Assembly: GCA_018436095.1 (NCBI GenBank)
Contig: JAHDMJ010000008.1
Coordinates: 230,518-294,517 of the forward strand
Direction of reading: 5' to 3'
DNA: 64,000 nucleotides
Origin: Clostridia bacterium
Lineage (GTDB): Bacteria; Bacillota; Peptococcia; DRI-13; UBA5745
Part shown: piece by piece, positions 4,756 through 22,609 of the stretch
How the letters are laid out: every line of letters begins with the position of its first letter
Position numbering within the stretch: position 1 is the first letter of the stretch
Notes under the pieces: model-generated
The model's input: the letters and a program-made list of their open reading frames with translations, nothing else
What the model was told of the DNA's origin: nothing
Databases searched by the model: none
Made by a program: the position numbers and the translations under genes

Positions 4756-4812
4756 ATCAGGGTTAAAGGGAAATCTTTAAGCAGGCTGCAACTAAATAGC
4801 AATGAATTGAGG

Positions 4813-4841
4813 CATTCCGTGAGAGCGGGATGTCTTTTTTT
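4813..4841 (+). terminator. intrinsic terminator after rplT
   Basis: Stem CATTCCG (4813-4819) / CGGGATG (4826-4832) with one G.U pair, followed by a T7 run (4835-4841). Confidence 0.6.
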
Positions 4842-5195
4842 GTCGGAAATTGAGTTTTTGCATAATAAAAACATTTATGGAGAGTTGACAAATGGTGGAA
4901 AGGAGAATACCTTATACTCAAGTGGGAGTTCGTAAATTTTGGGATTGCTTTATTTAATAAGAAGAGGGATTAAAGATTAAGGAATTATGAGCTATAGAAA
5001 GGTTTGAGAACGTTTTAGAGAAAAGAGTGTTTTTCTAGTGCGAACCCTAAGTGGTAGTATGATTGACATATCTTTCGCACTAAAAATAGCATGAAAAGGT
5101 ATTGTGTGATGTAATATTATCCTTTGTTTTACATAATAGATGATAGCAAAATCTATATGTACGCATGTCTAAGGATAATATGACTATATGTAGCT

Positions 5196-5498
5196 GTCAC
5201 TCTCTGTGAAGAGAGTGGGGATTGAAATTTGGTGTGTTTTTGATGATTTTATTTTTGGTTCGGTCACTCTCTGTGAAGAGAGTGGGGATTGAAATCATAA
5301 GCGGCAATGGCTGCGGCTCCATCTCGCTGTGTCACTCTCTGTGAAGAGAGTGGGGATTGAAATCCGGTTGCGGTATCCCGCACAGATAAAATGCGTTGTC
5401 ACTCTCTGTGAAGAGAGTGTGGATTGAAGTCTCAATATAGGGATTTACCATCAACGCCTCAATGAGTCACTCTCCTCACGGAGAGTGTGGGCCGATGT
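5196..5498 (+). CRISPR. CRISPR array, leader-proximal part (4 full repeats plus 1 repeat truncated after nt 25)
   Basis: 33-nt repeats lie at 5196, 5263 and 5331 (GTCACTCTCTGTGAAGAGAGTGGGGATTGAAAT, three identical copies). A variant lies at 5398 (...GTGTGGATTGAAGT). The unit at 5466 is GTCACTCTCCTCACGGAGAGTGTGG followed by divergent GCCGATGT. Spacers are 34, 35, 34 and 35 nt. The palindromic stem and ATTGAAAT 3' end resemble type I-C-style repeats. An AT-rich leader lies upstream. Confidence 0.9.
5466..5490. repeat. left copy of the 25-nt core shared by both ends of the insertion (attL-like)
   Basis: GTCACTCTCCTCACGGAGAGTGTGG is identical to 14532-14556. It equals the first 25 nt of the CRISPR repeat. 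Confidence 0.85.
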
Positions 5499-5567
5499 CA
5501 AGTAAGGTTACAAAAATATTTTATATTTTTGCGAAATATCATTTTTAAATGAAAGTGAGTATCTTGC

Positions 5568-5613
5568 ATAAAAAGCAACTAAGCTGACACCGCTTGAAAA
5601 GCGACGCCAGCTT
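5568..5613 (-). terminator. strand-specific intrinsic terminator ending the defence operon
   Basis: On the minus-strand transcript, AAGCUGGCGUCGCUU-UUC-AAGCGGUGUCAGCUU forms a 15-bp stem. Three of its pairs are G.U, which would be A/C mismatches on the other strand. AGUUGCUUUUU follows the stem. It lies ~70 nt after the helicase stop. Confidence 0.5.
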
Positions 5614-5685
5614 GCATGATTTTTAGTCGTTTTATGATATGGCTCAATTTTTTTACCTTTTGGGAGAAGTTCAGCAAATAGTATT

Positions 5686-8037
5686 TTATTTAGCATCTGG
5701 GTATTTGAATCGCTCGACAATCTTTTTTTGTTCATCAGTCAACTCATCATATTTGTCATTAAAGATGATTTCTTGCTCATTAATTCCATCAATACAATTG
5801 TTTGCCCACTCAATTTCCTCAAAAGTTAAACCATAACGGAGCATCCAAATATCACGTTCGTCATCTGTTCCATATCGAATATATTTTGCTAACCTCAAGG
5901 CACGGTCATCATCTTTTGAGGTTTGATTTTGATAATACTGATGGAATATAGCATAAAAAATATCTGTGAGTTTAAAGCCTATAAGTTTATCCATGTAATC
6001 ATAGGTGTCATAAATAACACGATCATAATCGACCTGAATTGCTGGCATTGTGCCGAATAGGGAATAGTTATTAAGCGTTTTATCTGGAATATCATCGTAT
6101 TCCCTCAAAAACTGTGCTTCCAATTTACCAATTTCATCCGTCCTTTCGAGCTTTTCAAGTTGTGTACGTTCCTTCTTTTTTGAGGCATAATCATATCTGT
6201 GCTGACAAATTAAGCTGAAAGTTTTTTTGTAAACACGCCAAAGCATAATCTTTATTGCCTGATTCAGGATGCTCTTTTCAGCAGACACTAATTCGCGTCC
6301 AAGGTAAATCTGGTAAAGAGAATAGAAATCTTGATACATTTCTTTTCGATCATTTTGTTCTTCATTGTCCCATTGGGGATAGACAAGCTGTCCATCGTCA
6401 AACATCATATCTAACAAAGTTGGTATAATGGATGTTATTTCTTCCGTAGCAAGCTTTTGGACATCGTTATTCGTTAGATTGTATTCATCATTGAACTGAT
6501 CATTTTTTATTGCTTCCTTGAATTCTTCATACTTTTCGTCAAGTTTCTCATCGTCTTTGTCGAGATGAGATTGTTCCGATATGCGCTCTGGCTTGCTTAT
6601 AACCGAACGAAATGAACTTTGATTGTCTTTTTTTACAATTGCTGCGCCAATATCAAATACATCCTTTTCCGTAGAGCGCCCGGATCTGCCTATTAAGTTT
6701 TTTACAGAGAGAGGCTTGCTTTTTTCAAAGCGATTCAAATAAACCACATCAAACGGCATATTTATACCCTGTTCAAGTGTAGAAGTAGCAAAACAAATCC
6801 GGCAGAAGCCTTTCTGAGTAAAATGCTCCAATATCATTCTTGCCCGAAGAGGCATAGAACCGTGATGGACAACAATACCATGTTTCAGATGTTCAAGTGT
6901 TCTTGAAAAATAATTCGCGTTTTTTCCATTTGAGGCACCGACATATTCCCGCAGTTTTTCTACTAATTCCAATGCTTCGGGATCGGTTATCTGTTGGCAT
7001 AATTGAATGTATTTCTTAAAGTCTGTATAGATTTTGTCGTTGTAAATATGTTTTTTCGGTACATATATAAGGACGCTACCGCCATCATTTATTGCCTTTT
7101 CTATAGGATCAAAAGCGGCAGGAACACGGCGTTCTCCCATAACGCTTTTATCAATACCAAAATGATAAAACTGCCCCGTGGACTGATCGTGAGAATAGAA
7201 TATTTGCCCGACATTCTTTTGTTCATACTGAATAGCCGTGGCATTATCACTTATGTCTACGTTGTTTTTCTTTAATTGCGCTTCAGGGTTAGCTACAAAA
7301 GGATGGGCAAAAACGCACTTAGCGTTAGGAAATGATTTTTGAACACGACGAACTATACTGTCAAAATATAAGCCTCGAACTGAATCTTCATCGCTTAGCT
7401 GGGCTTCATCAAAAAGCACAAGCCCTATGTTCAGTTTATCTTTTAACTTGAACAGCTCTCTTGCCCGTTCCGGGGTTAGAATGAAAATATTGCGTTTTGC
7501 GTGTTTAGTATTGATTATATCGATGAAAGTAAGGATATTAACAGTTTTATCTTCAATAATTTCATGAACACGATCAAAATACTCATTTATTAAAGCCCTT
7601 GAGGGAACGATAACGGCAACATCGTAATCTGCTGTTTTAATAAGATTTCGAAAGACAAACGATTTCCCGGTACTCGTCGGAGCCGAAAAGCTGAAGGTTT
7701 TCATTTGCCGAATCTTCTTCAAAATATCTGCCTGAACAGGAGTATATTCTTCGCCGAACTCTTCTTTTATGTATTTTCCATAATCGGCGAAGATAAGACT
7801 AAGAAAAGTGTCGGGGTTCGGTTTTTTGTAGTATAGGCCCATCATTTCAATGATATCAGATTCATGTTCTTTAAAATAGGCAGGTTGAAAGAGCTTGAGA
7901 TATGAAAATATCTCAAGTACAGAACTGTCGACTGAACCTTCCTTAAAGAGTCTTTGCCGAGCGTAAGCAAGATGTGCATCAAGATTTGTCCCGTCGCGGA
8001 TTTCAGCTATTCGGTTTAAGGATTTTGCAACTATCAT
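5686..8037 (-). CDS. hamB: superfamily-2 DEAD/DEAH-type helicase, HamB-like (Hachiman-type defence helicase)
   Basis: Motif I FSFSAPTSTGKS, motif II LFDEAQL, motif V ATSTLEQGINMP, motif VI LIGRSGRS. A ~300-aa acidic/aromatic C-terminal region has no motif I recognise. Its start overlaps the stop of the upstream small gene (ATGA at 8034-8037). Confidence 0.7.
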   Translation of the reverse strand: MIVAKSLNRIAEIRDGTNLDAHLAYARQRLFKEGSVDSSVLEIFSYLKLFQPAYFKEHESDIIEMMGLYYKKPNPDTFLSLIFADYGKYIKEEFGEEYTPVQADILKKIRQMKTFSFSAPTSTGKSFVFRNLIKTADYDVAVIVPSRALINEYFDRVHEIIEDKTVNILTFIDIINTKHAKRNIFILTPERARELFKLKDKLNIGLVLFDEAQLSDEDSVRGLYFDSIVRRVQKSFPNAKCVFAHPFVANPEAQLKKNNVDISDNATAIQYEQKNVGQIFYSHDQSTGQFYHFGIDKSVMGERRVPAAFDPIEKAINDGGSVLIYVPKKHIYNDKIYTDFKKYIQLCQQITDPEALELVEKLREYVGASNGKNANYFSRTLEHLKHGIVVHHGSMPLRARMILEHFTQKGFCRICFATSTLEQGINMPFDVVYLNRFEKSKPLSVKNLIGRSGRSTEKDVFDIGAAIVKKDNQSSFRSVISKPERISEQSHLDKDDEKLDEKYEEFKEAIKNDQFNDEYNLTNNDVQKLATEEITSIIPTLLDMMFDDGQLVYPQWDNEEQNDRKEMYQDFYSLYQIYLGRELVSAEKSILNQAIKIMLWRVYKKTFSLICQHRYDYASKKKERTQLEKLERTDEIGKLEAQFLREYDDIPDKTLNNYSLFGTMPAIQVDYDRVIYDTYDYMDKLIGFKLTDIFYAIFHQYYQNQTSKDDDRALRLAKYIRYGTDDERDIWMLRYGLTFEEIEWANNCIDGINEQEIIFNDKYDELTDEQKKIVERFKYPDAK

Positions 8038-8723
8038 ATGTTCACCGCCACTATCACAATTTCTTCAAACGGAAGAAGCTTCATGAAATCTTGGTGTTTA
8101 ATCACGCTATCAATCAGGCTGGTGCTTGCCGTGGATTTTGCAGAAAACGCTATTGCAAATCCCTTGAAGCCATCGTTCGCTCTGCTTAGGGCTTCGGAAG
8201 TACAAAAATCGCGCAAATCAGCTAACTGTTTAATATCTTTGGAATCCTCTATAAATTTTGAGACTTGTGAAATCGCAGTAGCGTGAGCACTTTGTCGTGA
8301 GTTGTATTTTGCCTCTCCGAAAATAACGGTATTGGTAGTGTTATTTTGACTGTGAAAATCGAAACCGGGGTTGCCAGAGATTTTCATACCAAGCAGTTCA
8401 GCCAGAGGGATATGTAGGTAGCTCATCTGGCTTAGGAGTGATTCACGCGCCAGCTCAGATACCACATATTCACCAGCTTCTTTAGTTACATTATCATTCG
8501 AGCAATCATCGAACTTTTTCTTGATATCAGCGATTGTTTCCTCCGCGCGCTTCTTGAAACTACTTTTCAAATAATCTTCATCAAAACGGCTCAACCATGA
8601 TAAATCCATAAGTACTTCAATTATTTGGGAGAGTGTGTCCTGCAAATTTTCGGGATCAATGCGGATGAAGGTAATGTTCTTATTATCCTCGTGAGCCACA
8701 GATTTATATTCAATAACCTTCAT
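8034..8723 (-). CDS. hamA: small PD-(D/E)xK-like protein, HamA-like (DUF1837-type)
   Basis: 229 aa, soluble. It has a nuclease-like signature GFDFH (D122) ... FGEAKY (E137, K139) preceded by AGEYVVSELARE. It sits directly upstream of, and overlaps by 4 nt (ATGA), a large SF2 helicase, which is the Hachiman gene order. Confidence 0.55.
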   Translation of the reverse strand: MKVIEYKSVAHEDNKNITFIRIDPENLQDTLSQIIEVLMDLSWLSRFDEDYLKSSFKKRAEETIADIKKKFDDCSNDNVTKEAGEYVVSELARESLLSQMSYLHIPLAELLGMKISGNPGFDFHSQNNTTNTVIFGEAKYNSRQSAHATAISQVSKFIEDSKDIKQLADLRDFCTSEALSRANDGFKGFAIAFSAKSTASTSLIDSVIKHQDFMKLLPFEEIVIVAVNI

Positions 8724-8736
8724 TGCAATATCCCTC

Positions 8737-10962
8737 CTACAGTATTACATCGCGGAGCAACGACCAAAAAGAACTGGAAACGTCGTCGCTATACTCCTCT
8801 GTGCAAATGCATAGTTCGCCGCTCTTTTTATCTTCACGGACAAAACCACCCTTCATGTCGTGTCTTTGCACAAAATCTTTCAATACAGCAAACTTGCGAG
8901 GTGAGAATTTGTCTATATCCTGACTGTTGCCGTATTTATCAAAGCCGCCTTTTGTTTCAATAATCCAGCATTCGCCATTAACACTGATGATATAGTCGGG
9001 AAAGAAAACGCGAACTTTCTGAAAGGCATCCTCGTACACGATGGAAAAATACTCCGATCCTTTATCACCGTTTTTATATAACCATTCTACGGAAGAAGCC
9101 GTTTCGCAGAATTTTTCAAATGCTTTTTCTGAGGAAGAACGAGGAGCGGCAGAAGATAAATAGCCTTCGTAAACATTCTTTTTCCAAATGGTTTGAAGCT
9201 TTTCTGACGCATCATAGGTAAACTCACATTCATGTAAGAATCTGAACTCTTTGTCCGTCCGCTTGTCGTTTAAAGTGTCCGATATCAATCTGATCTGACT
9301 CAGAGTAGCCGCCGATGCATCTCGCACGATATTTTTCAAAAGTTCGCGATTGTTGAGCGTAAAGGCATATAATTCGCTGGTCGTGGTGAATATAAGAATT
9401 TGATAGGTACTCTTATTCGAGTTTTTCATAAAGAACCTTCTGAAAATTGCGTTCAAATGCTCGTATTTTAAACCCACACGCAGAGCAATTTCACCGACAA
9501 TGTGGTGATACTCTCTGCCATGAATAGTTGTGCTTACAGGTGCCTGAATATATGTGGTGTTCAAATCTTGGTAGCTGCTTCTTTCTCCGGCGGCAATAAT
9601 CTCATTTTCTTCAGCGACATACTGCCTTACCTGATCCGAGAAGATAAAGCCGTTAGCTTCCAAGCGTTTTTTATTTTCAACTGTTCTTCCGTCTATGTTA
9701 TATTGCTTTTTGAAATAGCTGTGTATCGCTTTAAGAATCTCTCGTTGATCCCGTGCAAAAGGAACTCCGGAAACTTGTTCACAAGTCAGGCGAACCGATT
9801 TATATTCTGACTTGAGATACAGCGTGGCACCTTCCAGCGCACCTTTTCCGAGACTTTGCTTTACGCTTTCGGTAAATTTTTCGTCAAGTGTAAACAGATA
9901 GCAGCTATCGAGTAACGGATCACCGTAGTGCTTTGCCTCCGGCATCCGGCGGATGCGCCCGATTGTCTGGATTTCAAATGTTTCACTCATATGGTCACGG
10001 AGTTTAACGAGGATGTGTGCTCTTGGGCAGTCCCAGCCTGTAGCAATTGCTTGTTTGATGATTATTGCAATCGGCTTCGCGCTATTCGGTACAATTTCTT
10101 CTTCCGATGAGTTCTCATGCTTTTCGGAAAGACGAACCGCAAGCAATCCGTTGTCATAAGTTATGCCTTTTGCTTCAAACCACTTTTCAACGCCATCCAA
10201 GAGGACATCGTTTTTGTTCGGAAGCTGTACGACAATAAGAGGGTTCACTTTTGAACCACGAGAAGAGAACGACGAATAGAGCTTCCTGTGTTTATCAAGA
10301 GCCTTTGTCAGTAGATAATCTATCTGGTCTGTAACTTCATCGCCTTGCTTTATACCCTCGTTAATAACAAGGACTTTCTTTATAAGCTCTGCGGCAATAA
10401 CCTCCGCTTCCGGCACTTCAATGCGTGTTGCATCGGTGTATGCTTTTGGCGTAGCAGAAGCACGGATGATTTTATCCGTTTTGAAATAATCAATTATTTC
10501 CTTGCCTTTGATGGTGTCCCCTTCATGGCTTTCATCAATTATAATTTTAAAGGAAAGACCAGCGTCAAGAGCGTTTTCTATATGTTCAAGGAAGTTTGTC
10601 CGCTCAGTCGGTTTGAGCGCGTTATTGCTGGACTTGTTCAGCGACTCCCAGTTAATAAAGCAGACATCATTTTCTTCAAAGCCACCTGTCATAACATCTA
10701 AGAGTGTTTTTGTCTGCGAGTTATGGATATACTTATCCATCTTCTTTTTGCTTTGCTCTTCCAGATCGCCTTTGCCCGGAGTAAGCCAAATAAATACCGT
10801 TTTTGCGAATGATTTGAGATACTCATCCATAAAATGGGTGAGTATAATTGTCTTGCCGCTTCCCGTGCAGCTTTTTAGTATAATATCCCGCTTATCATCT
10901 TGCATAGCTACCATAAGGTCAGCAATAGCTTTTAATTGAAAATCAGCTAATGTAATACTCAT
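8737..10962 (-). CDS. res: type III restriction enzyme Res subunit (helicase-nuclease)
   Basis: Motif I SCTGSGKT, motif II IIDESH, motif III ASAT, motif VI QTIGRIRR. A C-terminal PD-(D/E)xK is present (FFPDYIISVNGECWIIETKGG). It starts 5 nt after the stop of a beta-class methyltransferase gene. Confidence 0.8.
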   Translation of the reverse strand: MSITLADFQLKAIADLMVAMQDDKRDIILKSCTGSGKTIILTHFMDEYLKSFAKTVFIWLTPGKGDLEEQSKKKMDKYIHNSQTKTLLDVMTGGFEENDVCFINWESLNKSSNNALKPTERTNFLEHIENALDAGLSFKIIIDESHEGDTIKGKEIIDYFKTDKIIRASATPKAYTDATRIEVPEAEVIAAELIKKVLVINEGIKQGDEVTDQIDYLLTKALDKHRKLYSSFSSRGSKVNPLIVVQLPNKNDVLLDGVEKWFEAKGITYDNGLLAVRLSEKHENSSEEEIVPNSAKPIAIIIKQAIATGWDCPRAHILVKLRDHMSETFEIQTIGRIRRMPEAKHYGDPLLDSCYLFTLDEKFTESVKQSLGKGALEGATLYLKSEYKSVRLTCEQVSGVPFARDQREILKAIHSYFKKQYNIDGRTVENKKRLEANGFIFSDQVRQYVAEENEIIAAGERSSYQDLNTTYIQAPVSTTIHGREYHHIVGEIALRVGLKYEHLNAIFRRFFMKNSNKSTYQILIFTTTSELYAFTLNNRELLKNIVRDASAATLSQIRLISDTLNDKRTDKEFRFLHECEFTYDASEKLQTIWKKNVYEGYLSSAAPRSSSEKAFEKFCETASSVEWLYKNGDKGSEYFSIVYEDAFQKVRVFFPDYIISVNGECWIIETKGGFDKYGNSQDIDKFSPRKFAVLKDFVQRHDMKGGFVREDKKSGELCICTEEYSDDVSSSFWSLLRDVIL

Positions 10963-10967
10963 ATAGA

Positions 10968-12620
10968 TTAACCCTCCAATCCTTTATAGTAATAGTCAGG
11001 AATAACGAACAATTCAATGCCAAGCAATTTAAGCGTTTCTTCCTGTTCGGCGGATAGTAGGACATCATGCCCGACATAGAGCCGCTTGCATGGATTGAGG
11101 GCTTCGGTGTTATCAAAAAAAGAATCAGCTTCTTCATCGGTCAAGACAATGGCGTTCTGGGCATTGTCTGTGAAATTTACGCCGTTTTCCAGTTCGACCA
11201 GTTCCCTCACATGTTCCAGCAATTTCGGCGCATAATCGTAGTAAAAGGTCGGATTGCCGTCTTTATCTTTTTGAGATACAAAATCAACACAGTAATACTT
11301 TAATGACTCCTTGTATTTATCTCTGTCAATAACTCGTCTAATGCGTTCATATGTGACTTCGCGGCAAATATTATTTTCGTTGTTTGTGCAAAGAATAAAG
11401 CGTCTGGTACCGCCATCTTCGGCATTCAGCTTCATAACAGCGTGAGCAGTTGTACCAGAACCTGCGAAGAAGTCAAGAATGGTAGCATTTTTGGACTTTA
11501 GACTAATATCCAGTATTCGCTCGATCAGCCTTATTGGTTTTGGATTTGTAAACATTCCCGCTTTGCCAAAAACGCTTTTCAAATCTCTTGTCCCTTCTTG
11601 GGTATCTCCAACTTCTGCTCTATACCAAATAGTTTTACATACAGTTCCTTGCTGAACTTCGGAAAGAAATGTTTTTATTCGAGGCACATTATTTCCTTTT
11701 GCCCCAAACCAAATTCGGTTATCCTTTTTCAGTGCCTCATAGTTTTCTTGAGATGTTACCCAACTACGGCTGGCTGTAGGGATGACAACTCTTCCTGACG
11801 GAGTTGTGATTGGGTACATATATGCTTCAGATGCCGTTTTTACCGTAAAATCACTTGAAGCCCACACACCTCTTGGATCATTATCGGGATTTGAGTATCT
11901 TTTATCCATTGTTTCAGTTCTACTCAATAAATTGGGATGCCACTTTTCCTTGTTCTTGGCATAAACAAGAATGTGATCATGGCTATCAGATAACCATTTC
12001 GCGTCGTTTTGTGGTGAGAATTTTTTTTCCCAAATAACATTAGCAATAAAATTCTGATAACCAAAAATCTGATCGCAAAGCAACCGCAAAGCTCCGACCT
12101 CATTATCATCTATGGAAATAAAGATAACGCCAAAATCAGACAGAAGGCTCTTAGCAAGCTCCAACCGACGCAACATGAATGAACACCATTTGGAATGTCT
12201 AAATGTATCATTTTTATCTACTAACAAATCAGAGTAAGTAAAACCTTCTTTTAATGTATTGTACGGTGGATCGATATAGATAAGGTCTATCTTTCCACGA
12301 TGCGTTTTTAACAGCAATTGCAAAGAGGCAAGGTTGTCTCCCTCAATGAGAAAGTTCACCTGCCCATCATTGTTGATAAACAAATCAGGTTCTTCAGTAA
12401 GTACAGGTACATTCTCCGCAAGGATTTCATCTATTTCCTCGCGATGCTCTTCAAACACTAAACCATATTTTTTAGACTTGACTTCCTTTTCAAGTTCAGA
12501 TAGGTACACCATCAAAACCCCTGTGTTTTCGTCATGTGGGGTTTCTGCAATATACGTTCGAATGGCTTCGATTTTGTTAATTAAGTTATCCCTTTTTTCT
12601 TTGGAGATATTAGTGCTCAC
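10968..12620 (-). CDS. mod: type III Mod DNA methyltransferase (beta-class N6A/N4C)
   Basis: Motif IV IYIDPPYN precedes motif I LDFFAGSGTTAHA, with a long variable region between them (beta-class order). It is adjacent to Res. Confidence 0.85.
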   Translation of the reverse strand: MSTNISKEKRDNLINKIEAIRTYIAETPHDENTGVLMVYLSELEKEVKSKKYGLVFEEHREEIDEILAENVPVLTEEPDLFINNDGQVNFLIEGDNLASLQLLLKTHRGKIDLIYIDPPYNTLKEGFTYSDLLVDKNDTFRHSKWCSFMLRRLELAKSLLSDFGVIFISIDDNEVGALRLLCDQIFGYQNFIANVIWEKKFSPQNDAKWLSDSHDHILVYAKNKEKWHPNLLSRTETMDKRYSNPDNDPRGVWASSDFTVKTASEAYMYPITTPSGRVVIPTASRSWVTSQENYEALKKDNRIWFGAKGNNVPRIKTFLSEVQQGTVCKTIWYRAEVGDTQEGTRDLKSVFGKAGMFTNPKPIRLIERILDISLKSKNATILDFFAGSGTTAHAVMKLNAEDGGTRRFILCTNNENNICREVTYERIRRVIDRDKYKESLKYYCVDFVSQKDKDGNPTFYYDYAPKLLEHVRELVELENGVNFTDNAQNAIVLTDEEADSFFDNTEALNPCKRLYVGHDVLLSAEQEETLKLLGIELFVIPDYYYKGLEG

Positions 12621-12835
12621 TCAGTTTCCTCCTGTTCAGGCAGAATTTCCATTATGTCTTCAATGCCGCAACTTAGTGCAGCACAAATCTTTACTAATAC
12701 ATCTGTTTGCACATTCTCACCTTTTGTAAGCTTTGCAACCGAAGCAGAGCTGATTCCTGTCATCTGACACAAATCACGCTTCTTTAAATCTTTATCAATC
12801 AACAACTTCCATAGCTTTTTATAGCTAACAATCAC
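12617..12835 (-). CDS. XRE/Cro-type helix-turn-helix regulator (possible controller protein of the operon)
   Basis: 72 aa. LKKRDLCQMTGISSASVAKLTKGENVQTDVLVKICAALSCGIEDI is a typical HTH_XRE. It has a GTG start, and its stop overlaps the mod start by 4 nt. Confidence 0.75.
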   Translation of the reverse strand: MIVSYKKLWKLLIDKDLKKRDLCQMTGISSASVAKLTKGENVQTDVLVKICAALSCGIEDIMEILPEQEETE

Positions 12836-12867
12836 GATTACACCGCCTAAATGTCATTTATTTAATT

Positions 12868-12896
12868 ATTATATTAAATATTGTTGGAAAATACAA
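12868..12896 (-). promoter_or_regulatory. candidate promoter of the HTH-mod-res-hamAB operon
   Basis: On the minus strand: TTGTAT (12896-12891), a 17-nt spacer, TATAAT (12873-12868), ~30 nt upstream of the HTH start. Confidence 0.4.
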
Positions 12897-13004
12897 GCTA
12901 AAACTTCGCGTTCGCAAAATTATTGTTTTTGAAACATAATATTTTATTTTTGTCCATAAACAGATTTAATGTCACTACAGATAATACAAGTTTAATTAAC
13001 TTAA

Positions 13005-14603
13005 TTATACAAGTGGCGCATCGGAAAACGTGCACTTAATCTCAATGCGATCCTTGTCATAGATAATTACCCGGTCGATCAGCGCAACGACAATTTCACG
13101 AGTCAGGCTGCCGTCAAAGGGCAGGTCGAAAAGCACATCATACAATGGGTCTGATATGGTTTCTTTTGGATTTTCTTTTATGGAGAGTTCCATGGCGCGA
13201 ACCTGCTCAGTGAAGCCTTGCAGCTTTCTGTCGGCATCCTCACGTAAGCGAAGGTATTCTTCTTTTTTCATATCTCCGTCACAGAAACGTGTATAAAAGG
13301 ACAGCTTGTCGTTCTCAATGGCATCAATCTGCCGTTCAATGACCTGGATACCTTTCATGCGTTCCATTGTAGCCGCCGTTTGCTTTTCATCCCGGCTCCG
13401 CCGCTTTTTCTCCTTTGCCGCGAATGCACTGTATAATCCACGCAAAGCCGCAAGCACTGTTTCCTCCACAGCGGATACCTTGACACCCTTATGCGGACAA
13501 TCACCGTTTGTATAGAAGGTCTTGTACCCGCACAGATAGGCCGGCTTTTTCGCATTGCTCCGCGACATTACATGACCGCAGCCGCTGCAGCGCACCTTTC
13601 TGGATAACGGACGAACTGTGTGCGGACGTTTTACGATAGATTTTGGGGAGCGGAAAAGGCTCTGAACCGCCTCATATTCCTCCTTGGAAACAATCGCCTC
13701 ATGACGGGTTGGAGAGATATGCCATTGCTCCTTGGGGACAAGATGGTGCCGGTTGTCGCCTACAACACTGCACCGTGTCATGCCCTGCACCAGTAACCCG
13801 GTGTATCGCACATCCTTTAATATCGCCCGGACGGTTCCGTCCGTCCAGACATTATTGGTGTTGTAGCCGACCTTGCGCCCGGTACACTCCAGTTTATAGC
13901 GCCCCGGTGTCAAGATGTTTTCTGTGTTCAGGATTTTTACGATCATCTTCACACCCATGCTATCCAGTGCCATTTTATAAATGCGCTGGACAATGGCGGC
14001 AGCGTCCGGGTCTACCACAATTCTGTGAATATCCGCGCTGTCCTTAATGTAGCCGAACGGGGCGGTTGACGCATGATACTTCCCGCCGTCCCGCAGGGCG
14101 GCAATGCCGGAGCGCACCTTGCGGGAGAGGTCTTTGGAATAGTAGTCGTTACACAGGGATTTGAACGCGACGCTCACATCGCCTGCCGAGCATTCCTGCC
14201 TGGCGCTGTCAAAGCCGTCATTGACACTGATGAACCGTACACGAAGGAAGGGGAAAATCTGCTCAAGATAGTCCCCAACCTCAATGTAGCTCCGCCCGAA
14301 CCGGGAAAAATCCTTCACAAGAATACAATGGATTTCGCCGCGCCTTACTTTTTTCAAAAGCTCTATGATGCCGGGGCGGTTGAAGTTTGTTCCTGTATAA
14401 CCATCGTCGGAAAATTCGAGGAGCTTTGCACCGCACAGGTCAGGGCAGGAAGCAATATAGCTGTCCAGAATATCACGCTGACCCTCAATGCTCTGGCTTT
14501 CGCCGTAGCGCCCATGGCCCTGGCCCGGCAGGTCACTCTCCTCACGGAGAGTGTGGATTGAAGTTCTTGGTATGCTTGTATCAGAGAAAGGAGGCGATGT
14601 CAC
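13005..14603 (-). CDS. large serine recombinase (5' end aberrant; possibly N-terminally truncated)
   Basis: ESQSIEGQRDIL...FSDDGYTGTNFNRPG...ILVKDFSRFGRSY...VRFISVNDGFDS is the resolvase-type catalytic domain. It is followed by the recombinase domain, a Cys-rich zinc-ribbon (CSGCGH...CGY...C) and a coiled coil. The first 24 codons of the track ORF (14532-14603) are CRISPR repeat/spacer DNA. No in-frame ATG lies in the first ~200 codons encoded by the element. Confidence 0.8.
   Translation of the reverse strand: MTSPPFSDTSIPRTSIHTLREESDLPGQGHGRYGESQSIEGQRDILDSYIASCPDLCGAKLLEFSDDGYTGTNFNRPGIIELLKKVRRGEIHCILVKDFSRFGRSYIEVGDYLEQIFPFLRVRFISVNDGFDSARQECSAGDVSVAFKSLCNDYYSKDLSRKVRSGIAALRDGGKYHASTAPFGYIKDSADIHRIVVDPDAAAIVQRIYKMALDSMGVKMIVKILNTENILTPGRYKLECTGRKVGYNTNNVWTDGTVRAILKDVRYTGLLVQGMTRCSVVGDNRHHLVPKEQWHISPTRHEAIVSKEEYEAVQSLFRSPKSIVKRPHTVRPLSRKVRCSGCGHVMSRSNAKKPAYLCGYKTFYTNGDCPHKGVKVSAVEETVLAALRGLYSAFAAKEKKRRSRDEKQTAATMERMKGIQVIERQIDAIENDKLSFYTRFCDGDMKKEEYLRLREDADRKLQGFTEQVRAMELSIKENPKETISDPLYDVLFDLPFDGSLTREIVVALIDRVIIYDKDRIEIKCTFSDAPLV
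14532..14556. repeat. right copy of the 25-nt core (attR-like)
   Basis: Identical to 5466-5490. Here it continues into the proper repeat 3' end, ATTGAAGT. Confidence 0.85.
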
Positions 14604-14631
14604 TCTCCTTACGGAGAGTGTGGATTGAAGT
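14532..14631 (+). CRISPR. CRISPR array, distal part (2 repeats, 1 spacer)
   Basis: GTCACTCTCCTCACGGAGAGTGTGGATTGAAGT (14532-14564), a 34-nt spacer, then GTCACTCTCCTTACGGAGAGTGTGGATTGAAGT (14599-14631). Confidence 0.85.
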
Positions 14632-14800
14632 CTTTTCAGATATAGCTCCTAGAAATTGATGAATAGTCGTATGATAGCGGGTTAGCGTTGCCGGCATCGC
14701 AGAGAAGGGAACTAAACCATAGTCAAGTGATCCGTGGAGCGGATATGTAAAATTTTAATTCTCCTAGCGGAGAACGACTGTGTATCACAACCGGAAAGTC

Positions 14801-14860
14801 AAGGCTTAAAAAGATACGAATATTAGTATATAATATAAGCAAATTTGCTATAACGGATTG
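14801..14860. repeat. direct repeat copy 1 (promoter-like, upstream of the DUF1638 gene)
   Basis: AAGGCTTAAAAAGATACGAATATTAGTATATAATATAAGCAAATTTGCTATAACGGATTG is ~80% identical by eye to 15597-15655 and contains TATAAT. Confidence 0.8.
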
Positions 14861-14876
14861 ACCGTCAGGAGAAAAA

Positions 14877-15605
14877 ATGCGGATACATATAATTGCCTGT
14901 CAGGTATTTAATAGGGAGTTTGCTCATTATATTGCCAAGAGCGACAACATCATTGATGTCTGCTGGCTGGAACAGGGCTTGCACGATACTCCCGTTATTT
15001 TAAAAGAAAAGCTGCAAAACGCTATTTTAGAAGCAGAGAAAAGGAAGAAAAATATACCTGATGCAATCGTCTTGGGATATGGACTTTGCTCTAACGGAGT
15101 AGTTGGGCTTTCTTCTTCTAAATTTCCTCTCGTTGTTCCCCGCACAGACGATTGCATTGCGGTGTTTTTGGGTTCGCAAAAACGATATCTGGAGTATTTT
15201 TATAAAAATAATTCCACCTACTGGCTTAGTTTGGGCTGGATAGAACATGGTTTTGTTCCCAATGAGAAAACGATGTTAGAAAGAAAACAGGGGTATATCA
15301 GAGAGTTTGGGGAAGAAGGGGCAGAGTATTTGTACCAATTTGATATCGATTGGACAAAAAAGTATTCTTATCTCACTTATATTCAAAATAAGTTTTATCA
15401 AAATGAGAACTACTTAAAAGAGGCCCGGGAAATTGCCCTCAATTATGATTGGACTTTAGATATAGCAGAGGCCGACGATTCGCTAATTGAGGATTTAATT
15501 GAAGGCCGATGGGACGAGGAAAGATTTTTGGTCTGTCCTCCAAATCACACAATAGAACTAAGCTATGATGAAACAAAAATAACTGCCACATTAAATAAGG
15601 CTTAA
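14877..15605 (+). CDS. DUF1638 domain protein
   Basis: MRIHIIACQVF...GLHDTP..L...IVLGYGLCSNG...VVPRTDDCIAVFLGS matches the DUF1638 pattern as I remember it. The gene is AT-rich compared with its neighbours. Confidence 0.65.
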   Translation: MRIHIIACQVFNREFAHYIAKSDNIIDVCWLEQGLHDTPVILKEKLQNAILEAEKRKKNIPDAIVLGYGLCSNGVVGLSSSKFPLVVPRTDDCIAVFLGSQKRYLEYFYKNNSTYWLSLGWIEHGFVPNEKTMLERKQGYIREFGEEGAEYLYQFDIDWTKKYSYLTYIQNKFYQNENYLKEAREIALNYDWTLDIAEADDSLIEDLIEGRWDEERFLVCPPNHTIELSYDETKITATLNKA

Positions 15606-15655
15606 AGAAATACTGATTTTAGTATATAATATAAACAAATCGTTATAGCTAATTG
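15597..15655. repeat. direct repeat copy 2 (overlaps the DUF1638 stop; likely TrmH-family gene promoter)
   Basis: AAGGCTTAAAGAAATACTGATTTTAGTATATAATATAAACAAATCGTTATAGCTAATTG. TATAAT lies at 15625-15630. Confidence 0.8.
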
Positions 15656-15685
15656 CGGAAAAACACTAAACTTGGAGAACCCACT

Positions 15686-16468
15686 ATGGAGATCATCACC
15701 TCGGCCCAGAACCAATGGGTGCTGGAGGCCAGAAAACTGCAGCAAAAGAAGTTCCGGGAGGCCAAGGGGCTTTTCCTGGTGGAAGGCTTGCGCTTAGCGG
15801 AAGAAGCGGCTAAGTCGGCTTTCGTGGAAGAGGTCTATTATCATGAGACTCTGGGGGCTACGGAACGGGGAGAGGAGCTGTTAAAAACCCTGTCGGCCAA
15901 AGCCCGCCGTTTTTTTCAGGTTACTTCAAAAGTGTTAAATACCCTGGCGGAGACCGAGACCCCTCAGGGAATTGTGCTGGTTTGCCGCTGTGCTTCCTCC
16001 TCGTTAAAGGATTTCCGTCCGGCTGAGGGGCCGGTGGTTGTATTGGACGGCTTGCAGGATCCCGGCAATTTGGGGACTATTCTGCGTACCTTATGGGCGG
16101 CAGGCGGCAAAGGCCTGATCTGCCTTCAGGGGTCTGCAGATCCCTACGGCGGCAAGGCTGTCCGGGCTTCTATGGGCGGCATCTTTCATTTACCGGTATT
16201 TACGGATGTGACCTGGAGCGCTGCGGCCAGGTGGGCCCTGGATCAGAGCTATCAAACGGTTGCTGCCGACGCCGGCGGCGGCAGGGATTACCGCAAGCTG
16301 ACCTGGCAGGACAAGACTATGCTGTGTATTGGCAATGAGGCCCGGGGCCTGCTGTCCATCCCTGTGGCAGAGGTGGACGAACGGGTGTTTATCCCTTTGG
16401 CTCAGGGTGCGGAATCTTTAAATGCAGCGGTAGCTGCAGGCATATTGATTTATGAAGCCGTAAGATAA
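15686..16468 (+). CDS. TrmH/SpoU-family RNA 2'-O-methyltransferase
   Basis: GLQDPGNLGTILRT, IGNEARGL and ESLNAAVAAGILIYE are the SpoU motifs. The ATG at 15686, after GGAGAA, is preferred over the TTG at 15653. The position after rplT matches Bacillus ysgA synteny. Confidence 0.8.
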   Translation: MEIITSAQNQWVLEARKLQQKKFREAKGLFLVEGLRLAEEAAKSAFVEEVYYHETLGATERGEELLKTLSAKARRFFQVTSKVLNTLAETETPQGIVLVCRCASSSLKDFRPAEGPVVVLDGLQDPGNLGTILRTLWAAGGKGLICLQGSADPYGGKAVRASMGGIFHLPVFTDVTWSAAARWALDQSYQTVAADAGGGRDYRKLTWQDKTMLCIGNEARGLLSIPVAEVDERVFIPLAQGAESLNAAVAAGILIYEAVR

Positions 16469-16491
16469 CAATAAAAAAGGATTAGGACTAT

Positions 16492-17790
16492 ATGACAGAA
16501 CCAAAAGAAACCTCCAATACGGGTTATTCCATGTATGAAGCCATAAAAGAGGCCAAGCGCTGCCTGCGCTGCAAAAATCCTTCCTGCCAAAAGAACTGCC
16601 CCATCAATAACGACATCCCTGATTTTATTTATCAGTTATCAAAAGGGAATCTGGGGGAGGCCAGGGAGATACTGGCCAAGAAGACTAATCTGCCCGCCGT
16701 TTGCGGCAGAGTCTGCCCCCACGAAAAACAATGTGTGGGTCATTGTATCCTAAATGGCAAAAGTGCTCCCATTCAGGTAGGCAAGTTGGAAGAGTTTATT
16801 GCTGATTTTGATGCGGAAATGGGCTTGATCAAAGAAAACCTGCCTCATAAAACCAGAGGCAAGGTAGCGGTGATTGGCTCCGGGCCCGCGGGCCTTACCG
16901 TAGCCGGCGATCTGGCCAGGCAAGGTTTTAATGTGGTGGTTTATGAAAACGAAAGCGAGCCCGGCGGCGTCTTGCTTTACGGCATACCGGAATTTCGCCT
17001 GCCCAAAGAGATCGTCAGAAGGGAAATCAAAAGAATCGAAGCCCTGGGCGTCAGTTTTTTAACCAGCGTGATGGTGGGCCGGGATCTTACCATAGACGAT
17101 ATGTTTGCCCGAAACTTCGATGCAATATTTATTGGTACAGGCACGGCTCTGGCCCGGGATTTGGATATTCCCGGCCGGGGCAAAAGCGGCGTACTGCAGG
17201 CCACCTATTTTCTGCGCATGGTCACTCTGTATAACGGGGGCAATGTAGACAGAGACGAAGTTCCCGTAGAAGAAGGGGATAAGACCATCGTCATCGGAGC
17301 CGGCAATGTAGCTATGGATGCAGCCAGAACGGCTCTGCGGATGGGGGCGAAATCCGTTACGGTGGTGTCCAGAAGCGGCTTCGATAAAATGCCGGCTTTG
17401 CTTGCCGAATACAACAGCGCCCTTGAGGAAGGGGTGGAATTCCTCTGGGATGCCCAGCCTCTTGAGTTTACCGGTTATCAGAGCGTCAAAGGTCTGAAAT
17501 ACCGGAAAAACGGCGAGATACAAGAAATTGAAGGGGATACCGTGATGCTTGCCGTAGGCTCAAGGCCCGCCAGCCGGATAGTATCCACCACAACGGGCAT
17601 AGAAGTTAATGAAAACGGCTATGTCATCACGAGGGAGCGGCCTTACGGCATGACCACGAGAAAAGGCGTCTTTGCCGGCGGCGATGTGGTGCATAAGCCT
17701 GCCACGGTGGTGCTGGCTATGAAAGAAGCCAAAAGGGTAGCCGAGGGCATAGCTTCTTATGTGGATGCCATTAAGCTCCTTGATTTATAG
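16492..17790 (+). CDS. GltD-like NAD(P)H-dependent Fe-S flavoprotein oxidoreductase (glutamate synthase small-subunit family)
   Basis: N-terminal Cys clusters (CLRCKNPSCQKNCP, CGRVCPHEKQCVGHC), then VAVIGSGPAGL and a second dinucleotide fold, IVIGAGNVAMD. Confidence 0.8.
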   Translation: MTEPKETSNTGYSMYEAIKEAKRCLRCKNPSCQKNCPINNDIPDFIYQLSKGNLGEAREILAKKTNLPAVCGRVCPHEKQCVGHCILNGKSAPIQVGKLEEFIADFDAEMGLIKENLPHKTRGKVAVIGSGPAGLTVAGDLARQGFNVVVYENESEPGGVLLYGIPEFRLPKEIVRREIKRIEALGVSFLTSVMVGRDLTIDDMFARNFDAIFIGTGTALARDLDIPGRGKSGVLQATYFLRMVTLYNGGNVDRDEVPVEEGDKTIVIGAGNVAMDAARTALRMGAKSVTVVSRSGFDKMPALLAEYNSALEEGVEFLWDAQPLEFTGYQSVKGLKYRKNGEIQEIEGDTVMLAVGSRPASRIVSTTTGIEVNENGYVITRERPYGMTTRKGVFAGGDVVHKPATVVLAMKEAKRVAEGIASYVDAIKLLDL

Positions 17791-17800
17791 GATGATAAAA

Positions 17801-17845
17801 GGGTGTCTCGGAAAATGAATCTTTGGATTCGTTTCCGAGACACCC
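17801..17845. terminator. bidirectional terminator hairpin between convergent genes
   Basis: GGGTGTCTCGGAAA (17801-17814) pairs with TTTCCGAGACACCC (17832-17845), a perfect 14-bp stem. Confidence 0.7.
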
Positions 17846-17888
17846 TTGCTTTATGGATTTATGTCTTATCGGTTTTATTGTTTTTATT

Positions 17889-19559
17889 TTACTGGCCGTT
17901 GACAATGAAAGTGCCCTTGCTGTCTTTCAGGGCCACCGTTTGATTAAAGACTCCCGGCGTATGGCTGTCGGGCGTAAAATAGCCGGTGCGGACAAACTGG
18001 CAAGACTGGCCGGCCTGGGCCTCGGTTAAAGCGGCCTCGATTTTAGCTTCTTTCCTGACCTGAAGAGAATTGGGATTGATGTAATCGTCGTAGTCCTTGC
18101 CTTCGGGAATACTATTGACATCCTCAATGGTGAAGAGGTTTTCATAAAGGCGGATCTCTGCATCCTTGGCATGGGCAGCAGAGAGCCAGTGGATGGTGCC
18201 CCGGACTTTGCGGCCGTCGGCAGGCATGGCATTGCCCGTCTCCAAATCGGCGGAGCAGCGCAGTTCCACTACCTTGCCGCTGTCATCCTTAATGACCTCA
18301 TCACAGCGCACAATATAAGCGCCCATCAGCCGTACCTCGCCGCCGGGCTTCAACCGGAAGAACTTATTGGGGGCGTCTTCCATGAAATCGGACTGCTCTA
18401 CATAAAGCTCCCGGGTAAAGGGAAGCTGCCGGCTGCCGGCTTCCGGATTTTCCGGGTGATTGGGCAGGGAGAAATATTCCGTTTTGTCCCCGGGATAATT
18501 GGTAATGACCACTTTCAGAGGCTCAAGAACCGCCACCCGGCGCAGAGCCACGGCATTGAGCTCCTCCCGGATGCAGTGCTCCAGCAGGCGGATATCCACG
18601 ATACTGTAGACCTTGGAAATACCGACCTTGCGCAAAAAGTTGAAGAGGGCGGAAGGGGTATAGCCCCGGCGGCGCAAACCGGAAAGAGTGGGTATGCGGG
18701 GATCGTCCCAACCGTCCACCAGGCCCGTTTCCACCAGCTTGCGCAAATAGCGTTTGCTCATGACGGTATTGGTAATATTTAATCTGGCAAATTCATATTG
18801 ATGGGGAGGATGGGCAAAACCGATTTTTTCGATGACCCAATCATAAAGAGGCCGGTTGTTGGTGAACTCCAGGGAGCAGAGGGAGTGGGTGATCCCTTCG
18901 ATGGCATCCTGAATAGGATGGGCATAGTCATATAAAGGATATATACACCACTTGTCCCCTTGGCGGTGATGGGGTACCCGTAAAATCCGGTAAATTGCCG
19001 GATCCCGTAAGACGATATTGGGGGAGCTCATGTCAATCTTGGCCCGCAGGGTGCGGCTGCCGTCTGCAAATTCGCCGTTTTTCATGCGGACGAAGAGGTC
19101 TTCGTTTTCCGCCGGCGTCCGGTTGCGGTAAGGGCTTTCCTTACCGGGCTCCGTCAGGGTGCCCCGGTACTCCCGCATCTCATCGGCAGAGAGGTCGCAG
19201 ACGTAAGCGTCGCCCTGGCGGATCAGCTTCAAGGCATATTCATAGCATTGGTCGAAATAATCGGAACCGAAAAAAATACCGCCGCTGGGCTCTTCGCCGA
19301 TAAGCCAGCGGATATCCTCCTCGATGGAACGTACAAAGGAATCATCCTCTTTGGCCGGGTTGGTATCGTCATAGCGCAAATTGAATTTGCCGCCGTATTT
19401 TTTGGCGGTGGTATAATTGATCCAGATAGCCTTAGCGCTGCCGATATGGAGGCAGCCGTTAGGCTCCGGCGGGAAGCGGGTATGGACGTGGGTTTCCCGC
19501 CCGGCGGCCAAGTCGGCGTCGATGACATCATGAATAAAGTTGGGTATAGTTCCGCTCAT
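17889..19559 (-). CDS. glnS: glutamine--tRNA ligase
   Basis: Class I HIGH motif (PEPNGCLHIGSAKA), the VMSKR motif, and overall GlnRS-like sequence. The start is taken at MSGTIPNFIHD. Confidence 0.9.
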   Translation of the reverse strand: MSGTIPNFIHDVIDADLAAGRETHVHTRFPPEPNGCLHIGSAKAIWINYTTAKKYGGKFNLRYDDTNPAKEDDSFVRSIEEDIRWLIGEEPSGGIFFGSDYFDQCYEYALKLIRQGDAYVCDLSADEMREYRGTLTEPGKESPYRNRTPAENEDLFVRMKNGEFADGSRTLRAKIDMSSPNIVLRDPAIYRILRVPHHRQGDKWCIYPLYDYAHPIQDAIEGITHSLCSLEFTNNRPLYDWVIEKIGFAHPPHQYEFARLNITNTVMSKRYLRKLVETGLVDGWDDPRIPTLSGLRRRGYTPSALFNFLRKVGISKVYSIVDIRLLEHCIREELNAVALRRVAVLEPLKVVITNYPGDKTEYFSLPNHPENPEAGSRQLPFTRELYVEQSDFMEDAPNKFFRLKPGGEVRLMGAYIVRCDEVIKDDSGKVVELRCSADLETGNAMPADGRKVRGTIHWLSAAHAKDAEIRLYENLFTIEDVNSIPEGKDYDDYINPNSLQVRKEAKIEAALTEAQAGQSCQFVRTGYFTPDSHTPGVFNQTVALKDSKGTFIVNGQ

Positions 19560-19744
19560 ACGATCATATCTCCTTAAGTGATGGCATGGTATACTCGTCA
19601 TGCATTAGTGTGGACACGATTTATGTGTCATTATAGCATCACAATGGCCAAACAACAAGCAAAATGCAATGTTTCCTTGTATATGCTTTCACAATCCGTT
19701 ATAATTGAGATAAGATAAAGTTTCCAATGCTGGGAGGGTTTGCT

Positions 19745-20311: not shown

Positions 20312-20335
20312 AATAAGGTCAGGAGGTAAACATTA

Positions 20336-22003: not shown

Positions 22004-22009
22004 AGGCAG

Positions 22010-22426: not shown

Positions 22427-22477
22427 AGCGGTGCAGGGCGAGCTCATGAAAAGGAAAAGGCCAGTTGCTCAAAAATT

Positions 22478-22609
22478 GAGGTTGTGCGACAGTCTTATGC
22501 AAAAGCCAGTGCATATATGCAGGTCGTGCCGAATTATGCACATAATTAATCAAAAATCGGCTTTTGGAGCCGTAACAATTACTATTAAGACCGCACAACC
22601 TCGTTTTTT
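22478..22609 (+). other. structured element: 17-bp interrupted closing stem enclosing ~88 nt, followed by T6
   Basis: GAGGTTGTGCG-ACA-GTCTTA (22478-22497) pairs with TAAGAC-CGCACAACCTC (22586-22602), then GTTTTTT. Internal small hairpins are present (AATTAT/ATAATT, GGCT/AGCC, GTAA/TTAC). Confidence 0.25.

Follow-up and report, generated by a model that had tools for sequence, protein, structure and literature searches.

How did a 9-kb block of DNA carrying two anti-phage systems come to lie inside a CRISPR repeat, and is it a complete mobile element or part of one? The stretch analyzed here (the window) is 64,000 nucleotides long. A first-pass annotation had proposed that a small serine-recombinase element of about 9.07 kb was inserted site-specifically, with the CRISPR repeat as attB and a repeat-like sequence on the element as attP. 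The described arrangement was confirmed to the base, while the interpretation placed upon it was only partly supported.

The 25-nt sequence GTCACTCTCCTCACGGAGAGTGTGG was found exactly at positions 5466-5490 and 14532-14556, 9,066 bp apart, with a one-mismatch copy at 14599; none is expected by chance (0 matches in 100 shuffles). The left copy continues as GCCGATGT, while the right copy continues as ATTGAAGT, followed by a 34-nt spacer and the repeat at 14599-14631. The cargo is 32-44% GC against about 45-56% in the flanks. Deletion of one copy plus the insert does restore 6 repeats and 5 spacers, as was claimed, but this is not diagnostic since any two repeats of an array satisfy it. A serine-recombinase gene does abut the right junction; however, it lacks its first 17 codons, and its open reading frame (13005-14603, minus strand) reads through the repeat and the spacer to a GTG inside the last repeat, both of which had been missed. 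The features of the region are as follows.

5033-5195, plus strand: CRISPR leader, AT-rich, with a candidate promoter (TTGACA-18-TAGCAT) at 5063-5092
5196-5430, plus strand: repeats R1-R4 (5196, 5263, 5331 and 5398; 33 nt each) with spacers S1-S3; R4 is a hybrid variant ending ...GTGTGGATTGAAGT
5431-5465, plus strand: spacer S4 (35 nt)
5466-5490, plus strand: first 25 nt of repeat R5, forming the host (B) arm of attL, with the inferred crossover within TGG at 5488-5490
5491-5555, minus strand: conserved element end (P' arm), ...AAAATATTTTTGTAACCTTACTTGACATCGGC on the minus strand, carrying an outward-facing TTGACA
5581-5613, minus strand: terminator-like hairpin after hamB
5678-12844, minus strand: portable defence cassette (HTH, Type III mod, Type III res, hamA and hamB), AT-rich
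5686-8037, minus strand: hamB, the Hachiman helicase (783 aa)
8034-8723, minus strand: hamA-like gene (229 aa)
8737-10962, minus strand: Type III restriction subunit, res (741 aa)
10968-12620, minus strand: Type III methyltransferase, mod (550 aa)
12617-12835, minus strand: Cro/C1-type HTH gene (72 aa), probably the controller of the cassette
13005-14512, minus strand: 5'-truncated large serine recombinase (LSR), equivalent to the third gene (LSR3) of a three-LSR module
14513-14531, no strand assigned: 19-nt orphan segment CATGGCCCTGGCCCGGCAG, proposed to be the 3' remainder of a half-deleted spacer
14532-14631, plus strand: complete repeat R5' (14532-14564), spacer S5 (34 nt) and terminal repeat R6 (14599-14631)

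The host array has the characteristics of type I-C, namely regular 33-nt palindromic repeats ending in ATTGAA(A/G)T, 34-35-nt spacers and a leader. The leader is 74% identical to that adjoining a full I-C cas operon (cas3-cas5-cas8c-cas7-cas4-cas1-cas2) in relative L016, whereas no Cas homolog was identified within the window by tblastn; cas genes elsewhere in the genome cannot be excluded. The array is chromosomal, and an uninterrupted array exists at this locus: relative L027 is 94% identical across the trmH-DUF1638 flank, the trailer and the terminal repeat, and then continues into an uninterrupted array. Its terminal repeat is identical in sequence to R5'.

The left junction (5488-5516) is a genuine attachment site. 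The element end GCCGATGTCAAGTAAGGT... is conserved downstream of the third recombinase gene in relatives that carry three tandem LSRs, with 92% identity over 40 nt in relatives L001-3 and further matches in L004-7, L073 and L076, each with a different flank. In two independent metagenome relatives (L001-3 and L076) this end abuts position 25/26 of two other type I-C-like repeats. Three different repeats, GTCACTCTCCTCACGGAGAGTGTGG (window), GTCTCTCCCCACACGGGGAGAGTGG (L001-3) and GTCGCTCCCTGCGAGGGGAGCGTGG (L076), are thus joined at the same position and in the same orientation, and each is followed by spacers and full repeats of its own array. The flanks of L004-7 and L073 are not recognizable CRISPR repeats, so target specificity varies within the wider family.

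L076 also shows the reciprocal junction, ...TATTATACCGCCAGCA|TGGATTGAAAT, which overlaps attL by TGG only, and from this the crossover was inferred to lie within TGG at repeat positions 23-25. The reconstructed attP (...TTGACATCGGC-CCA-TGCTGGCGGTATAAT...) contains no repeat copy and gives TTGACA-17 nt-TATAAT across the joint. Both attR and attP are derived from this single short contig (1.9 kb), which could equally represent two insertions in one array or a circle carrying a mini-array, and no full-length member with both junctions on one contig was recovered. The dyad symmetry of the reconstructed attP is weak, at 11 of 24 positions, no better than several other centres tested. In the window only attL is canonical.

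The right junction is not an att site, since it lies inside the recombinase gene. This gene retains the C-terminal Recombinase (PF07508, E = 1.2e-21) and zinc-ribbon (PF13408, E = 1.2e-9) domains and corresponds to residues 18 to about 519 of intact homologs, with 87% identity to LSR3 of L001. The Pfam Resolvase match starts at profile position 14, tblastn starts at residue 18, and DNA homology to L001 covers only 13017-14510. Homologs begin M..LAKYLRLSDDDGRYGESQ, whereas the window reads ...LREESDLPGQGHGRYGESQ; the catalytic-serine motif YLRLSDDD (Y-x-R-x-S) is absent. The gene is the third of three LSR genes in every relative examined (L001, L004, L070 and L073), but no other LSR, helicase or sigma-like homolog exists in the 64 kb, and the other element end, sought as the L076 P-end motif, is absent from the window. 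Between the truncated gene and a complete repeat lie the 19 nt for which no homolog was found in any relative. The truncation is recent, as dN/dS against L001 is 0.13 and the open reading frame is intact.

The cargo is a separate module. Copies 88-91% identical were found in L038 and L061-L069, there adjacent to relaxase, NikA and a giant SNF2 protein inside conjugative elements, with homology stopping at 5678 and 12844. That related strains might carry the same DNA at non-CRISPR sites without the 25-nt core had been named beforehand as grounds for rejecting the original proposal, and for the 7.2-kb cargo, though not for the whole block, this was observed. HamB was identified by PADLOC (E = 3e-52) and by Pfam DEAD and Helicase_C. 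The assignment of HamA rests upon weak precomputed PF08878 hits and on one member of its 90% cluster named as a HamA C-terminal domain protein, with no direct Pfam or PADLOC hit; the two genes overlap by 4 nt. Res was identified by Pfam ResIII (E = 5.6e-21) and PADLOC REase_III (E = 7e-14), and Mod by PADLOC MTase_III (E = 1e-117) and Pfam N6_N4_Mtase, its central recognition region differing between cassette copies. The HTH gene matched Pfam HTH_26 (E = 1.7e-19).

The explanation which we favor, as somewhat more likely than not, is that window 5491-14512 is the immobilized remnant of an integrative element from a family, apparently undescribed, which carries three tandem LSRs (LSR1-3) and uses the type I-C CRISPR repeat as attB. 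The circular element recombined with repeat R5 within TGG, about where Cas5c would cut the pre-crRNA, to give attL as repeat[1-25] + GCCGATGTCAAG...; canonical integration leaves attR as ...CCAGCA + TGGATTGAA(A/G)T + spacer and duplicates nothing, and it splits the promoter-like joint of the circle. The defence cassette lies between LSR3 and the element end and replaced the 3' tail of LSR3. A subsequent deletion would have removed LSR3 codons 1-17 including the catalytic serine, LSR2, LSR1 and the rest of the element, attR and roughly half of the next spacer, leaving 19 nt of that spacer in front of the next repeat, R5'. We regard the integration as shown by comparison of sequences, and the arrangement of the cargo as shown, while the deletion, the spacer origin of the 19 nt and recombination activity as such are inferred. 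In this view the two 25-nt copies are neighboring repeats rather than a duplication or a shared att core, and the block cannot excise by itself but persists as a fixed defence island. The perfect 25/25 match follows automatically from duplication models but requires identical neighboring repeats here, which is plausible because in the closest relative the CCTCACGG variant occupies two adjacent trailer repeats.

Of the alternatives, a Campbell-type homologous recombination survives best, although it is unlikely. An already truncated circular fragment (LSR3 remnant, cargo and element end) carrying one repeat copy picked up from a previous array would have entered R5 through about 25-33 nt of homology. 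This explains the perfect 25-nt identity and the intact downstream repeat, L076 shows that array fragments can lie between the two element ends, and 25 nt is close to the minimal length for RecA-dependent recombination. However, it needs the same illegitimate truncation plus an excision and a rare short-homology integration, more events than one in situ deletion; no circle and no second copy was found, and the left junction is exactly the canonical LSR attL.

The original proposal, a complete small element whose attP contains a 25-nt copy of the repeat, possibly mobilized in trans by recombinases encoded elsewhere, is more doubtful still. It was correct in that foreign DNA was inserted site-specifically into a chromosomal repeat by serine-recombinase chemistry, and the direct repeat and the restored spacing agree with it. 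An attP with this mimic would have the joint ...CCCGGCAG + the 25-nt repeat + GCCGATGT...; the hypothetical joint would read ...CATCGGC[core]CTGCCGG..., and the GCCG on both sides of the core also agrees with the proposal. The repeat-like attP, the self-contained element and the right junction as an att site were, however, not supported. The canonical attP of the family has no repeat copy and shares only TGG with the repeat, and the canonical far end is P-end + TGGATTGAAGT. Close relatives sit in repeats that differ at 6-9 of the 25 positions while their element ends are 92-100% identical, so that a heritable mimic would have had to be rewritten for each host. Translation of left end, core and right end gave MTSAHTLREESDLPGQGHGRYGE, with no YxRxS motif, and hence the recombinase gene is not rebuilt across a circular joint. 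No other copy of the right end exists in any locus retrieved.

A 25-bp target-site duplication produced by staggered cuts from a transposase-like or Cas1-Cas2/casposase-like integrase is very unlikely: the geometry (target 1-25, insert, target 1-25 then 26-33) is formally appropriate, but the block encodes no transposase or Cas1, the window has no cas genes, there are no terminal inverted repeats beyond GCCG, the reciprocal junctions in L076 overlap by 3 nt rather than 25, and Cas1-Cas2 would duplicate the whole 33-nt repeat. An assembly artefact is the least likely, for although arrays commonly break or mis-join in short-read assemblies and several relatives' contigs end inside arrays, a Logan contig (L008) from a second assembler is 100% identical to window 5396-22496 across both junctions (its read set, SRR13787010, is probably the window's own, so that this tests the assembler rather than providing an independent sample), the shared stretch is 25 nt while Logan assembles with k = 31, in which case the junction k-mers would be unique, and the left junction is reproduced in independent samples with other repeats.

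Elements with related properties were compared one by one. Integrative conjugative elements of Streptococcus use a triplet of serine recombinases (Ambroset et al. 2016, PMC4701971), and relatives L001, L004, L070 and L073 have exactly this arrangement of three tandem genes at one end. The streptococcal elements reportedly target protein-coding genes; no conjugation module was seen in the parts of our relatives that were read, and the window retains only the truncated third gene. A Streptococcus pyogenes prophage integrates into CRISPR repeats and splits the array (Varble et al. 2021, Nat Microbiol; cited in PMC10651486 and PMC11837452). That case is reported to involve a type II-A array and a repeat-like sequence on the phage, whereas here the genes are all recombinase, HTH, R-M or Hachiman, without phage genes or any match in the phage collection or IMG/VR, the repeats are type I-C and the integrase is a serine-recombinase triplet. 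Tn7-like transposons of cyanobacteria also target CRISPR repeats (PMC11837452), but by transposition rather than conservative serine recombination, and they are minimal and cargo-free, while this family carries cargo. Tn4451/Tn5397 of clostridia (TnpX/TndX) likewise have an LSR gene at the element end, a circular intermediate and a promoter assembled only at the circle joint; they use a single recombinase and a GA-dinucleotide target of low specificity, and have no known link to CRISPR. SCCmec-type LSR islands carry anti-phage defences (PMC11470126); SCCmec elements use Ccr recombinases with the attB in rlmH, not in a CRISPR repeat.

It is probable that such a three-LSR family has evolved to use the I-C repeat itself as attB, with crossover at the TGG which separates the repeat hairpin from the 11-nt crRNA 5' handle. 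Every repeat of every compatible array would then be a landing pad, allowing several insertions in one array; insertion would cut the array transcript at about the point of pre-crRNA processing, suggesting a simple anti-CRISPR effect; other defence systems could be deposited inside the array, which would show how Type III R-M and Hachiman come to be embedded in CRISPR loci; and a promoter may exist only in the excised circle. A bolder extension is that, if the array fragments between the element ends of L076 travel with the element, it could move spacers between hosts. CRISPR arrays are usually seen as records of mobile elements, not as their attachment sites; in the literature searched only the streptococcal prophage and the cyanobacteria-restricted Tn7-like transposons were precedents, and this family would add a third, mechanistically different route. 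LSRs with a short, defined, naturally multi-copy attB are also of interest as integration tools. For this genome the conclusion is more modest, namely a dead, fixed defence island in an array with no cas genes nearby.

No other copy of the 9 kb was found in the plasmid or phage collections, the best LSR relative in plasmids was 37% identical, and the L076 joint region had no plasmid match. IMG/VR scans with the 25-mer, the element end (two patterns) and the LSR3 protein returned nothing. The 19-nt segment had no match in the arrays of the relative, and its five IMG/VR hits were all in contigs of 51-71% GC, three of them homologous to each other, which is chance level. The spacers had no targets among the loci retrieved, Rfam gave no hit on the window region, and no inverted copy of the end motif was found at the other end of relatives. 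A 7-nt match (CTCTCCG) shared by the repeat and the LSR3 catalytic-serine codons was considered as the cause of the truncation, but the observed junction is not at that site. Sister-strain contigs carrying the flanking oxidoreductase were identified. The other element end was also sought through the DinG-type helicase, which led to L074 and L075, members of a lineage with a different third recombinase and a non-CRISPR context; these show only that the riboswitch-sigma-helicase module is shared.

The first-pass annotation had described a serine-recombinase element inserted inside a CRISPR repeat, with the same 25 nt of repeat sequence at each junction, and this observation is correct. The 25-mer GTCACTCTCCTCACGGAGAGTGTGG is present at 5466-5490 and at 14532-14556, with a one-mismatch copy at 14599, while no match appeared in 100 shuffles. 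The left copy continues GCCGATGT, whereas the right copy continues ATTGAAGT and is followed by a 34-nt spacer and a last repeat at 14599-14631. Four more 33-nt repeats (5196, 5263, 5331 and 5398) follow an AT-rich leader just downstream of rplT. The GC content of the insert is 32-44%, against about 45-56% around it. A Logan contig (L008) is 100% identical over 5396-22496 and crosses both junctions; since its read set (SRR13787010) is probably the window's own, this represents the result of a second assembler rather than a second sample.

Six genes were identified in the insert, of which five are cargo and specify two defence systems. The genes are:

13005-14603, minus strand: large serine recombinase (LSR) ORF (Pfam Resolvase, Recombinase and Zn-ribbon)
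12617-12835, minus strand: Cro/C1-type HTH gene (Pfam HTH_26)
10968-12620, minus strand: Type III mod (PADLOC MTase_III, E = 1e-117)
8737-10962, minus strand: Type III res (Pfam ResIII; PADLOC REase_III)
8034-8723, minus strand: hamA-like gene (weak precomputed HamA hit only)
5686-8037, minus strand: hamB (PADLOC HamB, E = 3e-52)

The recombinase gene is a truncated third gene of a three-gene module. The Pfam Resolvase match starts at profile position 14; homologues begin M..LAKYLRLSDDDGRYGESQSIEGQ, whereas the window reads ...IHTLREESDLPGQGHGRYGESQSIEGQ. A tblastn comparison with the closest intact homologue starts at residue 18 of the latter, and DNA homology (87.6%) covers only 13017-14510. 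The catalytic-serine strand is therefore missing. The ORF stays open only because it reads through the reverse complement of repeat R5' and spacer S5 to a GTG inside the terminal repeat, R6, and no promoter-like site was found upstream of it. Joining the two ends of the insert as a circle does not restore the motif. In every related locus this gene is the third of three tandem LSR genes (LSR1-3), and in the closest relatives (metagenome contigs L001-2 and L004-5) these follow a DinG-type helicase and a DUF6870 gene. The window contains no other LSR, helicase or sigma-like homologue. The dN/dS value against the L001 gene is 0.13, so the truncation is recent or the gene has not yet decayed. The related three-LSR element of L001 (2251-2340 and 3498-3584) carries a c-di-GMP-I riboswitch (RF01051, 78.8 bits) ahead of a sigma-like gene and a dinG RNA motif (RF03082) ahead of its DinG-type helicase; the riboswitch region is shared with L075, a contig of a lineage with a different third recombinase. 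In some relatives (P0005/L076 12-1343; L004 11596-11967) a small resolvase-domain gene (123-135 aa) follows LSR3. In L076 it is fused in frame to LSR3, while in L001 only a remnant of it survives as the LSR3 C-terminal tail.

The left end of the insert is a genuine, conserved element end. Window 5491-5555 matches the sequence immediately downstream of the LSR genes in L001-3 (92% over 40 nt), L004-7, L073 and L076, whereas beyond ...CTTACTTGACATCRGC the sequences differ between lineages. Two relatives are decisive. In L001-3 (LSR3 87% identical) the end abuts GTCTCTCCCCACACGGGGAGAGTGG, which is the first 25 nt of another 33-nt repeat, and a 34-nt spacer and a full copy of that repeat follow up to the contig end. 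In L076 (LSR3 83% identical, from a different sample) the end abuts GTCGCTCCCTGCGAGGGGAGCGTGG, after which come a spacer, a full repeat, another spacer, and then only TGGATTGAAAT joined to unrelated DNA (...TATTATACCGCCAGCA) leading to a ParA-like gene. Three different repeats are thus joined at the same position and in the same orientation, and each truncated copy is identical to the repeat of its own array; these are therefore independent site-specific insertions. The flanks of L004-7 and L073, by contrast, are not recognisable CRISPR repeats. Contigs L004 (12022-12051) and L005, L006 and L007 (equivalent position) are identical through the element end plus 30 nt (CCACTTGCCCTGCTTGCCGTTTAGCGGAAA) and then follow two different continuations; the L005-7 version begins GGCCGATATGGGGTATAAT, which resembles the far end seen in L076, in which case the two ends would flank only about 30 nt. 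Contigs L070, L071 and L072, from three samples (LSR3 47% identical), all stop exactly 49 nt after the small resolvase gene, following CTTGACACCATCAC plus 29 nt. Such breaks are typical of a repeated target, possibly another repeat family.

The two L076 junctions overlap by TGG (repeat positions 23-25), which is what a serine recombinase crossing over at a central dinucleotide would leave, and canonical integration thus duplicates nothing. In this view the two junctions with type I-C repeats would read TGG|GCCGATGTCAAG and CCAGCA|TGGATTGAA. The attP reconstructed from them (...TTGACATCGGC-CCA-TGCTGGCGGTATAAT...) contains no repeat copy. Both attR and attP rest on this one 1.9-kb contig, no full-length element with both junctions having been found on a single contig among the relatives. 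Moreover, the two-spacer piece of a CRISPR array which lies between the two ends of the element family in L076 (1404-1536) indicates either that two elements are inserted in one array or that a circular element carries array fragments, and the latter would move spacers horizontally. The reconstructed joint reads TTGACA-17 nt-TATAAT, a consensus promoter sequence that would exist only in the circle, reminiscent of Tn4451/Tn5397. Dyad symmetry around CA is weak (11 of 24 positions), and no better than at several other centres tested.

The array is chromosomal, and an uninterrupted array exists at this locus in a relative, a metagenome-assembled genome with two informative contigs. The first, L027, is 94% identical to window 17931-14599, covering trmH, DUF1638, the trailer and the terminal repeat, and then runs into an uninterrupted array of the same repeat family, the last two repeats of which are of the CCTCACGG variant. 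The second, L016 (705-8000), has a leader 74% identical to window 5033-5226 next to a complete type I-C operon, cas2-cas1-cas4-cas7-cas8c-cas5-cas3. No Cas homologue was found anywhere in the 64-kb window, in which, at 4756-5195, the leader lies directly after rplT, and its short array is apparently cas-less, at least locally. This suggests that the cas operon was deleted in this lineage.

The right junction is not an att site. The far-end motif of L076 is absent from the window, and instead the truncated gene is followed by 19 nt (14513-14531) with no homologue in any relative and then by a complete 33-nt repeat. The simplest history is canonical integration into repeat R5 followed by a deletion, which ran from LSR3 codon 17 through LSR2, LSR1, the rest of the element, attR and part of the next spacer. 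In this view the far end would originally have read ...CCAGCA|TGGATTGAAGT, the 19 nt would be what is left of a spacer ending ...CATGGCCCTGGCCCGGCAG before a CCTCACGG-type repeat, and the two 25-nt copies are neighbouring repeats of one variant, as in the trailer of the relative. The integration step is supported by sequence comparison with the relatives, whereas the deletion and the spacer origin of the 19 nt are inferred, the IMG/VR hits of this segment being chance-level matches in high-GC contigs; recombination itself and activity of the joint promoter are likewise inferred from sequence alone. A prior truncation followed by homologous recombination through the repeat remains possible, though less likely. 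The interpretation offered in the first-pass annotation is only partly supported, in that site-specific insertion into a CRISPR repeat holds, but a repeat-mimicking attP, the joint of which would read ...CCCGGCAG + 25-mer + GCCGATGT, is unlikely. A target-site duplication or an assembly artefact is very unlikely.

Triplets of serine recombinases are a recognised integration module of streptococcal integrative conjugative elements (PMC4701971), and integration into CRISPR repeats is known for an S. pyogenes prophage (Varble 2021) and for Tn7-like transposons (PMC11837452). Full-text searches, limited to open-access papers, found no report of serine-recombinase elements that use CRISPR repeats as attB. 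The copy in the window is a decayed member, which lacks the catalytic motif and the three-gene arrangement but keeps the orthologous gene and the canonical attL.

The cargo is a separate module. Window 5678-12844 recurs at 88-91% identity in contigs L038 and L061-L069. In the longer of these (L061-L068) it lies next to a relaxase; L061, L062 and L065 also show YpsA and NikA-like genes, and L061 a 2,655-aa SNF2-type gene. In other words, it sits there inside conjugative or mobilisable elements with no CRISPR context. In the window it is located between LSR3, whose C-terminal tail it replaced, and the element end. The central part of the Type III methyltransferase gene (about 11306-12256) is diverged or replaced between cassette copies that are otherwise about 90% identical, and the protein is 550 aa here against 605-617 aa elsewhere, which is consistent with a swap of the target-recognition domain.
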